Positions 3,001-6,000 of a DNA stretch of 35,268 nucleotides are shown here, one piece after another. Source of the stretch: a virus. Lineage: Duplodnaviria > Heunggongvirae > Uroviricota > Caudoviricetes. Where the stretch lies: IMG/VR virus record IMGVR_UViG_2778261214_000028, positions 1-35,268 of that record, one strand, 5' to 3'. How positions within the stretch are numbered: position 1 is the first letter of the stretch; the number at the start of each line of letters is the position of its first letter. A program made the position numbers.

Positions 3001-6000
3001 AAGTTGAAGGTCTCCATTTGCTGCGGCATCAGCCATTTTTTGCCTGACAAGCAGTAATGTTTCATACGGCTCAATAAGAATATCGTCATGAGTAATTAGG
3101 TGAAGCGTTGCCGCATCAACTATTCCTAGAGCTGCGCCAAGTATCAAAAATTCCCTGCTATTTTTGTCGCATGAGGAGATAAGCGTATTTAGCGCATACC
3201 TAATATTCTTTATAGCTGTTGTTAATGCTGCAATTTCTTCTATGGCGTCTTCTCCAATGAGCTTTTTAAGCTCATATTTTTCTTCCTGACCCATAATTAC
3301 CTCGCCGTCAGTTGTTTTGATTTCCGGTAGCCTGCCGCGTAAATGGCTACGTTTGGCAGGCAAATACTTCCACTGCATTCATCTGCCTTCTTGCAGCGAA
3401 GGCTTCCGAGTGATGCTGCTTTATCTGCTCTGACGCAACCAGAGAGCTTTAGCGCAATTTTTCGTGCCAATCGCTGTTCTTGCATTGCCTGTTCACGTTG
3501 AGCCTGTCTGCGTGCTCTGCGGCGATTTCTGGCGTTATCGTCAGCCAGATATGTAATGACTACTGTCATGTTGACCTCCGATGATTGACTTTGGCGGTGA
3601 CGCGCCGGGTGCTTATCTTCCGGTTGCCGTCGTGCAGCTGCACTTCACGTCACCCCAAAGCCAACTACTCTTTGGTTCCCGCATTTCGGCGGGACAATCC
3701 CATCAATGTTAAAGAGCCTGCCAATCTGTTCCGTTTGGCTTCCAGCGTCCTGCTGATGGCTTAAAGATAACTTAGGTTATAGGTGTGGTCAATAACCTAA
3801 TTTATATTTTATGGTAAATAGGTTATAAGTGATGGATAACAAAGGTATTTTATTTTTGTAAATGTTGCTGATTGATTGGTGTTTGAGGGCTTGCGTGCGG
3901 GGTGAAGGTGTTACCTTTGGCTTGATGCTTGTCTATGATGAGGATGGTTGATTGGGTGGTGAACGGCAGGAAAAGAAAACCCGGCGCTGAGGCCGGGTGT
4001 TTTTAGTCTTTTCTTTTGCTTAGCATTTCGTCGATTTCTAAGTCAATACGATATTGATCTATTGCTTTTCTCTCGTTTGGGGTTGGTATTTTATACTGTT
4101 CAATTAGATCTGTTGTGTATTTTATTTCATCTAATGTGATTTTTATATCAGAGAGAATCTCTTTTATATCAATTATATGCTCTTCTTCTTTTGCACGATT
4201 AGAGCTATGTTCAATCATTTGAGATAGCTTTTTACTAATGCTTAGCAAAACAAAAAGAATGATGACCAAAACAACAACAAAAACTATCAGAAATTCCATT
4301 ATCCCTCCGCACTTCCGTAAGTCTTCTTCTGATTATCGGTTACCAACTATGAGACGACCAGAATACTCTGCCAATAATCCTTACGGTTTCATGAAATTCA
4401 TCTCTATCCATTACTTCATCCGGGTACTCTTCGCGATTTATTGATCTGATTATCACCGATGTAGGGGTGGCGATTAATGTTTTTACTCGTAACAAATCAG
4501 ACTGGCAAATAGCGTAGGTTTTACCATCTCTGATTGTGGTATCTTGCGTGTTAACACCAACAACATCGCCATCGTGAAGCGTTGGTTCCATGCTTTGCCC
4601 TACAACCCTAACTAGCTTGGCTGATCTTTCAGATACTCCCATCTTTTTCAGATAGTGCTTTCTGAAAACCAAAGAGAACTCCGATGATTCCTCTAGCTCG
4701 CAGCTACCGCTTCCAGCTGAAAGCGAAACGTTAAGAAGAGGCAACGCAACAAACTCGTCATCGTTTCTTTTAATGTCTTCCCATACCACAGCTTTTAAAG
4801 ATGAATCACGGACATTGGATGGTTCTTCATGTGCACCATCCCTCATTTCACCAATACCAGAACTAAGCCATTCAGGACGCACTTTTAAAGCATTGGCTAA
4901 TTCAACCATCTTGCGAGATCCGTTTGTTTTACCGGACGACATCTTCTGTATGGCTGGCTGAGATATTCCAACCATGTCAGCAAGCTGTGATTGTGATACC
5001 CCTGCTGAGCTCATGGCTGCATTTAGTCTTTCTGCGAATGTTTTCATACCCACAAATCTATAACTACGGTTATCCAAAGTAAAATAACAAAGGTTATTGC
5101 TATTTTTTATAACTTGAGTTATCTTTGGTTATAAGTAATGACCACAAGAGGTATGCTCATGAATTTAGTAATTCAACGAGCCTTGAAAATTGTCGGTAGC
5201 CAAAAGCGCCTTGCCGACAAGTGTGGTGTAACGCAGCCAGCAGTACACAAATGGCTGAAAGGCGGGTTGGTCTCTCCAGAGAAAGTTACCGCCATCGTTA
5301 ACGCCACTGGAGGGCAGATCAAGGCTTACGAAATTCGCCCCGATTTGCCACACCTGTTTCCAAAACCGAATCAGGCAGCATAAGTAACACCGCTCTTTAA
5401 CAGTCATGGTCCTCATTCCCGCCGAAATGCGGGAATACAACGCGCATAAGTTGATGCGCATAACTTCTTATTTGTTAAGGAAATACTTACATATGGAACT
5501 TACAAGTACTCGCAAGAAAGCGAATGCAATTACAAGCAACATCCTGAATCGAATTGCTGTACGTGGTCAGCGAAAGGTTGCCGACGCGTTAGGGATTAAT
5601 GAATCGCAAATTTCGCGATGGAAAGACAGCTTCATCCCAAAAATGGGAATGCTTCTGGCTGTTCTTGAATGGGGTGTTGAAGACGAGGAGTTGGCGGAAC
5701 TGGCTAAGAAAGTAGCCAGAATGCTGACAAAAGAAAAAGCCCCGAAGAACGGCGAATTCTTCGAGGCCTGATGTAGAAAGACTGGATCAATCCACAGGAG
5801 TAATTATGACATACGAAAATGACAAATTCCAGGTTCTGAAGAGCATGAAGGTGCCAGATGATTTTAAATCAAATGGCTTTGTTTATGTGCTTTCGAATGA
5901 GTGCATGCCAGGAATTTATAAGATTGGGATGACTAAGCATTCACCAGAAGTTAGGGCTAAAGAAATTTCAGCCTCTACTGGCGTTCCTAAGCCATTTAAG

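Follow-up and report, generated by a model that had tools for sequence, protein, structure and literature searches.

What is the role of two identical hairpins encoded on opposite strands around the immunity region of a tailed phage? The question is raised by IMG/VR virus record IMGVR_UViG_2778261214_000028 (Caudoviricetes), of which we analysed a stretch of 35,268 nucleotides (nt), positions 1 to 35,268 of the record, hereafter called the window. The hairpins, CCCGC-CGAAAU-GCGGG at the RNA level, had been taken in an initial annotation for the boxB elements of nutL and nutR, the sites at which the phage antitermination protein N acts. We find that the two sites are very probably nutL and nutR, the N-utilisation sites of a P22-like (HK620/Sf6-type) lambdoid Escherichia coli phage, an assignment that agrees with their position and orientation, with the boxA and the hairpin, and with the N gene next to them. 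The sites and the N gene are already known, having been annotated in phage HK620 since 2001, and are not new.

Two identical hairpins with a shared boxA

A scan of the window for the 16-mer CCCGCCGAAATGCGGG, with up to 2 mismatches tolerated, gave two exact matches and no others (chance expectation 0.02), one on the minus strand (3678-3693) and one on the plus strand (5418-5433). An independent inverted-repeat search recovered the same pair and extended the identity to 19 nt, TCCCGCCGAAATGCGGGAA, with copies at 3676-3694 and 5417-5435 that are 100% complementary. The presence and location of the 16-nt element, as initially described, were thereby confirmed in full. Upstream of each hairpin is a boxA, of which the 11-mer GCTCTTTAACA is common to both sites (3707-3717, minus strand, and 5392-5402, plus strand; 2 matches against 0.02 expected), and the likeness between nutL and nutR runs on into the spacer, over 18 nt at 89%. 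Measured from the 9-mer boxA (CGCTCTTTA/GGCTCTTTA) to the 16-mer, the gap is 16 nt in nutL and 18 nt in nutR, in agreement with the 16-18 nt first reported.

The nutL hairpin folds into 6 base pairs (bp) under a 6-nt CGAAAU loop (-10.5 kcal/mol, z = -3.1) and the nutR hairpin into 8 bp under the same 6-nt loop (-12.5 kcal/mol, z = -3.9); none of the shuffled controls was as stable as either of them. The elements of the two sites and the adjacent N gene are as follows.

3677-3694, minus strand: nutL boxB hairpin, U-CCCGC[CGAAAU]GCGGG-A, 6 bp and hexaloop; from the exact 16-mer, the inverted repeat, the fold and identity with HK620
5415-5436, plus strand: nutR boxB hairpin, AUU-CCCGC[CGAAAU]GCGGG-AAU, 8 bp and hexaloop; from the 16-mer, the fold, the repeat and identity with HK620 nutR
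3707-3718, minus strand: nutL boxA, GGCTCTTTAACA; its 11-mer is also in nutR, and boxA and leader are as in phi21-type and P22 nutL
5391-5402, plus strand: nutR boxA, CGCTCTTTAACA; 8 nt past the cro stop (5383) and within the stretch annotated as nutR in HK620
3297-3569, minus strand: gene for the N antitermination protein, 90 amino acids; Pfam PF25694 N_peptide, E = 1.1e-15
3498-3536, minus strand: arginine-rich motif (ARM) NARNRRRARRQAQ, N residues 12-24; from the translation and alignment with other ARMs

Both sites lie in the leader of an early operon, that of pL or that of pR/cro, with a boxA of the CGCUCUU(U)A type 5' of boxB and with boxB a short stable stem-loop. The sequence between the two hairpins contains a cI-type repressor gene, a small unannotated open reading frame (ORF), a bidirectional terminator and cro, so that the sites are placed on the pL and pR transcripts on either side of cI/cro, around the immunity region as had been proposed. 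This layout agrees with the annotated records of HK620, P22 and lambda. In Rfam, no family was matched at gathering thresholds anywhere in the window, which means that no curated model covers boxB or nut.

We also considered long-range pairing of the boxA elements. In minimum-energy folds the nutL boxA (3711-3717) pairs with AAAGAGU (3666-3672) just past boxB, and the nutR boxA (5392-5402) with positions 5471-5481 in the Shine-Dalgarno region just before the cII start (UUGUUAAGGA); neither pairing was adopted. Shuffled sequences did as well as the nutL fold (z = -0.16), and the P22 and phi21 sequences compared lack the complementarity, so that it may be due to chance.

The N protein and its arginine-rich motif

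The N ORF starts 108 nt downstream of the nutL 16-mer and matches PF25694, "Transcriptional antitermination N peptide". The protein is 97.8% identical to the N proteins of HK140 and HK630, both annotated as 'anti-termination protein N', and residues 12-24 of its 90 are the ARM quoted in the initial annotation. Relative to the N proteins of phi21, P22 and 933W it is a mosaic: residues 37-64 are 96.4% identical to phi21 N in a tblastn search and match the phi21 N of DE3 at 28/28 positions, while the C-terminal part is common to 933W and 57% identical to P22 gp24. A search of PDB chains with N returned only spurious Arg/Glu-rich matches to RNF168, and was blind to the phi21, lambda and P22 N peptides because these are too short or too divergent.

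Identity with HK620 and distribution of the module

The flanks of N and nut in the window are about 97% identical to phage HK620. In the HK620 record, AF335538, positions 7753-7794 are labelled "nutL; putative N-utilization leftward" and positions 9423-9468 "nutR; putative N-utilization rightward"; further features of the record are pL, pR, operators, tR1 and "antitermination protein N". In the alignment, nutL and nutR of the window are the same as these features base for base, through boxA, spacer, boxB and flanks, and the two N proteins differ at 2 of 90 residues, which makes the present finding a rediscovery of an annotated element. The identification of the sites as nut sites in the initial annotation is supported by the layout, the PF25694 match of the N gene and the match to the putative HK620 sites.

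HK620 and the window part ways in the immunity cassette, the operators, cI and cro that the nut sites enclose; the cassette of the window resembles those of the Stx1a phage Stx1a_10051 and SH2026Stx1. The virion and late genes are about 95-97% identical to those of HK620 (about 95%), vB_EcoP-683R2 and Sf6, which identifies the window as a P22-like lambdoid E. coli phage or prophage. The module is common: among 5,426 complete E. coli genomes, 425 have 80% or more of the N and nutL module and 1,408 have parts of it, and relatives of the window N are encoded by at least 380 viral contigs.

Hairpin and arginine-rich motif vary together

Co-occurrence of the hairpin and the ARM was examined in two sets. 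The first was keyed on N and comprised the best 80 of the at least 380 viral contigs, 78 of them with usable upstream sequence. The exact 16-mer was present upstream of N on the same strand in 76 of these 78 contigs, and 75 had the divergent second copy as well. The second set was keyed on the hairpin and comprised at least 119 viral stretches with the 16-mer, mostly as divergent pairs; an N ORF with the ARM A[RK]NRRR[AE][RK]R follows 87 of the 88 nutL-type hairpins that have at least 700 nt downstream. This ARM is retained whatever the C-terminal two-thirds of the mosaic N, be they phi21-like, P22-like or other. The spacing between the two copies ranges from 1.15 to 2.99 kilobases (kb), with clusters at about 1.15, 1.23-1.40, 1.70, 1.74, 2.0, 2.3 and 2.9-3.0 kb, indicating that one nut pair brackets many different immunity cassettes, some with lambda OL/pL operators.

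A further scan used boxA plus spacer (GCTCTTTAACATYGAYGG) as the key, leaving the hairpin free to vary, and the resulting 116 sites were sorted by hairpin and downstream ARM. Five hairpin types were obtained, each with its own ARM type, and there was zero cross-pairing among the 116 sites.

CGAAAU loop, four stem variants: ARM A[RK]NRRRx[RK]R, about 83 sites
UCUCAAC-CUAACC-GUUGAGA: ARM AKSRYKARR (phi21 type), 14 sites
UCUCCCGC-CCUU-GUGGGAGA: ARM NSVSRRYLKRGELIAKRR, 5 sites
UCUCCCGG-AUAGU-CUGGGAGA: ARM ENSKTRKFKRTGEFF, 2 sites
UUCCUCU-CUAGCA-GGAGGAA: ARM KNRYRARRAAKREQ, 2 sites

The last three are further hairpin/ARM pairs (CCUU, AUAGU and CUAGCA loops) on the same boxA-spacer scaffold; of these, the CUAGCA/RYR pair seems to stand midway between the phi21 type and the HK620 type.

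A natural swap is provided by lambda DE3 (imm21), HK629 and PA28, which share with the window the leader from pL to boxA, the leader past boxB and N residues 37-64. They depart from it in the hairpin, which reads UCUCAAC-CUAACC-GUUGAGA, and in the ARM, their N starting with ..GTAKSRYKARRAELIAERR; these two alone have been exchanged, and in concert. In more divergent phages (ARM DNARNRRRAKRAAER..), one and the same genome has CUCCGC-CGAAAU-GCGGGG in nutL and CUCCCAC-CGAAAU-GUCGGAG in nutR. Here the stems change while the loop and the closing C-G pair are kept, and the second pair goes from G-C to A-U in a compensatory double change. Across 14 distinct hairpins, 89% of cells were paired, with double changes in 4 of 8 pairs, as compared to at most 61% in slid-register controls. 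The compensated stem changes together with the fixed loop indicate selection on RNA structure, and the part that stays fixed, the loop with its closing pair, is what would be expected of the specificity determinant for an ARM helix.

The initial annotation went further and stated that the sequence shows recognition of this boxB by N. Recognition gains support from the strict co-occurrence and from the co-variation of ARM and boxB; the word 'shows' was an overstatement, since both the binding of the hairpin by N and antitermination at the two sites are what we infer from comparison.

Comparison with lambda, P22 and phi21

The ARMs can be aligned in register (window, NARNRRRARRQAQREQA; P22, NAKTRRHERRRKLAIER; lambda, DAQTRRRERRAEKQAQW; phi21, TAKSRYKARRAELIAER). 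The boxB of lambda, GCCCU-GAAGA/GAAAA-AGGGC, has a pentaloop on a U-A closing pair, whereas the window has the CGAAAU hexaloop. The boxA is CGCUCUUA in lambda and GCUCUUUAACA in the window, and lambda Trp18 aligns with Ala28 of the window N. The GAAAA/GAAGA pentaloop, the U-A closing pair and the stacking Trp of the lambda type are all missing from the window, while the nut architecture, the RRRxRR core of the ARM and an A-rich GNRA-type loop are shared.

The nutL boxB of P22, GCGCU-GACAA-AGCGC with a U-A closing pair, is likewise unlike that of the window, whereas the nutR boxB of P22, ACCGC-C-GACAA-C-GCGGU, has the same upper stem, CCGC/GCGG. Aligned by eye, the window hairpin equals the P22 nutR boxB at 14 of 16 columns, the remainder being a missing C and a change from C to U at the closing mismatch. 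The claim that the boxB is distinct from those of lambda and P22 is therefore right as to sequence and holds for lambda and for P22 nutL, yet it makes the distance too large, the boxB of P22 nutR being a near relative. In the right boxB of P22, a 6C-12C pyrimidine-pyrimidine mismatch closes the GNRA-type loop (PMC6023938), and the extra C is looped out and contacts a His and an Arg of the peptide (PMC12550061). In the window the looped-out C is absent, the closing mismatch is C.U instead of C.C, and the aligned His is replaced by Arg (NAKTRRHERR in P22, NARNRRRARR in the window). The loop is accordingly GAAA and not the GACAA of the P22 type with its third base, C, looped out. Further likenesses to P22 are the homologous C-termini of N and a GCGCAU/AUGCGC hairpin downstream.

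In PDB 1NYB, the UAAC of the phi21 hexaloop CUAACC folds in a GNRA-like manner between the two bases of a C.C pair (PMC12550061). The window shares with phi21 the hexaloop layout (C-UAAC-C vs C-GAAA-U) and a homologous nutL leader, and differs from it in the loop sequence, the stem and the ARM (AKSRYKARRAELIAERR vs ARNRRRARRQAQREQA). Moreover, the nutL and nutR stems of phi21 differ from each other, whereas those of the window are identical. The combination that marks the phi21 type, CUAACC with a UMAC tetraloop on C.C and an AKSRYKARR ARM, is absent from the window and was never mixed with the window's type in the boxA-keyed scan.

The simplest reading of the window loop is that of a canonical GNRA tetraloop, GAAA, which would be flanked by a C.U mismatch. 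Judged by these alignments, the window boxB is closest in sequence to the nutR boxB of P22 and its predicted layout is that of phi21. The replacement of the P22 His by Arg and of lambda Trp18 by Ala would fit a loop that has no extruded base. The pair is probably best described as a close variant within the same recognition family as lambda and P22. It is possible, and we suggest it tentatively, that the HK620-type pair constitutes a structurally distinct fourth ARM-boxB class, with GAAA on C.U and an ARM that has neither the lambda Trp nor the P22 His. If this is true, the pair would be orthogonal to those of lambda, P22 and phi21 and might serve as an additional small RNA-tethering tag, and it would document a shift in specificity from a P22-nutR-like ancestor via loss of the looped-out base.

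Alternative explanations

G+C-rich hairpins in early leaders might also act in termination or attenuation of transcription near the beginning of the early operons, as tL0/tR1-type elements, rather than in the binding of N, and tR1 of HK620 is indeed annotated right after nutR. Yet a U-tract is missing after both hairpins, the flanks being AACCAAAG and AAUACAAC, and the terminator scan called neither of them; on these grounds we rejected this explanation. For termination there would also be no need of an invariant loop co-varying with the ARM of N, and we regard it as extremely unlikely that the hairpins have this function. A different view is that the boxA-hairpin blocks are module junctions, kept for homologous recombination among mosaic lambdoid phages, and that the hairpin does nothing by itself as RNA. 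That the same flanks bracket many different immunity cassettes, and that the leader flanks are common to phi21-, HK620- and P22-type phages, is in line with such a use. However, of these parts the hairpin alone differs from type to type, and it switches together with the ARM; compensated stem changes around a fixed loop point to selection on the RNA structure. We consider it very unlikely that the blocks are junctions and nothing else; use as a junction and function as a nut site are not mutually exclusive.

The Nun protein of HK022 acts on the boxB of lambda. By analogy, some factor other than N could be the ligand of the hairpin, for example a host protein or a Nun-like superinfection-exclusion protein of a competing phage, with N using a different RNA element. 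Against this stands the placement of the hairpin, which lies exactly where boxB lies in phi21 and P22, within a homologous leader, and which co-varies with the ARM of N itself. In addition, the only repeats that the inverted-repeat search found in both leaders are the hairpin, boxA and the operators, which leaves N with no other repeated element. The probability of this explanation is in our view very small.

Several observations nevertheless weigh against the assignment of the two sites to nutL and nutR. The related contigs are mostly very similar and the ARM and the hairpin are only about 150 nt apart, so that their co-occurrence partly reflects linkage, and the covariation signal comes from a handful of divergent sequences. 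The spacer between boxA and boxB is 8-9 nt in lambda and longer here, at 16-18 nt. The GNRA-on-C.U loop is a predicted structure, and the nutL and nutR features of HK620 are themselves labelled 'putative'. Finally, we found no published test of this ARM/boxB pair, with the proviso that a literature search cannot prove that none exists.

Proposed mechanism

If the two sites act as nutL and nutR, the leftward pL transcript and the rightward pR transcript would each present boxA GCUCUUUAACA, a spacer of 13-15 nt and boxB, whose CGAAAU loop is invariant and sits on a closing C-G; these elements can be read directly from the DNA. As suggested by the co-variation, the N-terminal arginine-rich helix of N (..NARNRRRARRQAQ..) would bind the loop and upper stem of boxB. 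By analogy with the established lambda N pathway, NusB/NusE would assemble on boxA and be joined by NusA and NusG, and N would tether the complex to RNA polymerase through its middle part, which is phi21-like, and its C-terminal part, which is like that of P22 and 933W. The polymerase would then read through the early terminators, leftward into N and beyond and rightward into cII and the replication genes. Candidates for the terminators that may be overridden are the hairpin at 5442-5459, in the place of HK620 tR1, and two terminator-like sites called by the terminator scan on the minus strand, at 2375-2397 and 1612-1633.

Immunity region and neighbouring genes

The features around the nut sites are listed below.

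4340-5077, minus strand: cI-type repressor; Peptidase_S24 and HTH_3, likely true start the ATG at 5047
5159-5383, plus strand: cro; YdaS_toxin, HTH_3 and P22_Cro matches, between pR and nutR, alternative ATG at 5138
5493-5771, plus strand: cII, the first gene past nutR; Phage_CII, E = 1.2e-42
3764-3792, minus strand: pL candidate, -35 TTGACC, 17-nt spacer, -10 TATCTT; from a consensus scan
5097-5125, plus strand: pR candidate, -35 TTGCTA, 17-nt spacer, -10 TATCTT; found by eye, the consensus scan having made no call
5442-5459, plus strand: second hairpin, GCGCAU-AAGUUG-AUGCGC, from its fold; 8 nt past the nutR boxB and followed by a U-rich stretch

The pL candidate overlaps the inverted repeats of the OL operator (3763-3809) and lies about 40 nt upstream of the nutL boxA, in the same position relative to nutL as the annotated pL of HK620. 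The pR candidate overlaps the OR operator repeats (5081-5126), which are common to OR and OL. The second hairpin, which sits about where HK620 annotates tR1, has the same stem and another loop in P22, and variant contigs with GCGCAUC..GGUGCGU retain the pairing.

Between cI and OL, at the position of rex/hkaS, an ORF of 98 amino acids (4003-4299, minus strand) has a hydrophobic N-terminus and no Pfam match, and is followed by a strong bidirectional terminator-like hairpin at 3979-3998. It may be an exclusion or moron gene expressed in the lysogen. On the other side of the region, an O-like replication ORF (6377-7303, plus strand) contains tandem peptide repeats, VSKLETKNVSKLETLNVSKLETLNVSKLET, at about 6860-6950 that match direct DNA repeats, which are probably the iterons of the origin.

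The N leader between nutL and the N start (3585-3665, minus strand) can form a long-range helix of about 20 bp, GUUGGCUUUGGGGUGACG.. with ..CGUCACCGCCAAAGUCAA, and the fold of the whole leader has z = -2.6. By eye, the phi21-type leader retains the helix via altered pairs, GUGGUUUUGG / CCAAAGCCAC. In lambda the N leader is a structure processed by RNase III, which the predicted helix in the window resembles.

The leader is also a site of variation. About half of the related contigs have extra DNA between nutL and N (for example L143, L127, L128 and L129), giving a distance of 325-578 nt as compared to 124 nt without it. Several types of insert share one junction, directly after ..CGCCAAAGTCAAT; one type seems to carry a small ORF for a hydrophobic product (MLDIMTNPILGGLV..), and in another the stretch next to boxB on its 3' side has been replaced. 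It may be that these are moron-like insertions under the control of N and nut. In four contigs (L134, L140, L154 and L202), the lambda OL/pL operator sequence (..TATCTCTGGCGGTGTTGACA..) is joined directly to an HK620-type nutL and N, which combines lambda immunity with a non-lambda N/nut specificity. One viral contig has a nutR boxB that is broken inside the loop (..CATTCCCGCCG|TGAACCGCCCCGGG..), suggestive of a decaying prophage in which nutR was lost to an insertion or deletion.

Significance

Antitermination by N at nut sites is textbook biology. For the phage itself, the analysis places nutL, nutR, N, pL and pR, and identifies the early-regulation module as one of HK620 type that is joined to a different immunity cassette. 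The broader gain is small, as the exact sites had already been annotated and the module is very common. The comparative value is in the finding that at least five ARM/boxB pairs replace one another cleanly in a single conserved scaffold of leader and N. The pair of the window, which is the most abundant of them, appears never to have been studied biochemically. Taken together, the pairs form a natural data set on the specificity of peptide-RNA binding, from which tethering pairs that may be orthogonal could be drawn.

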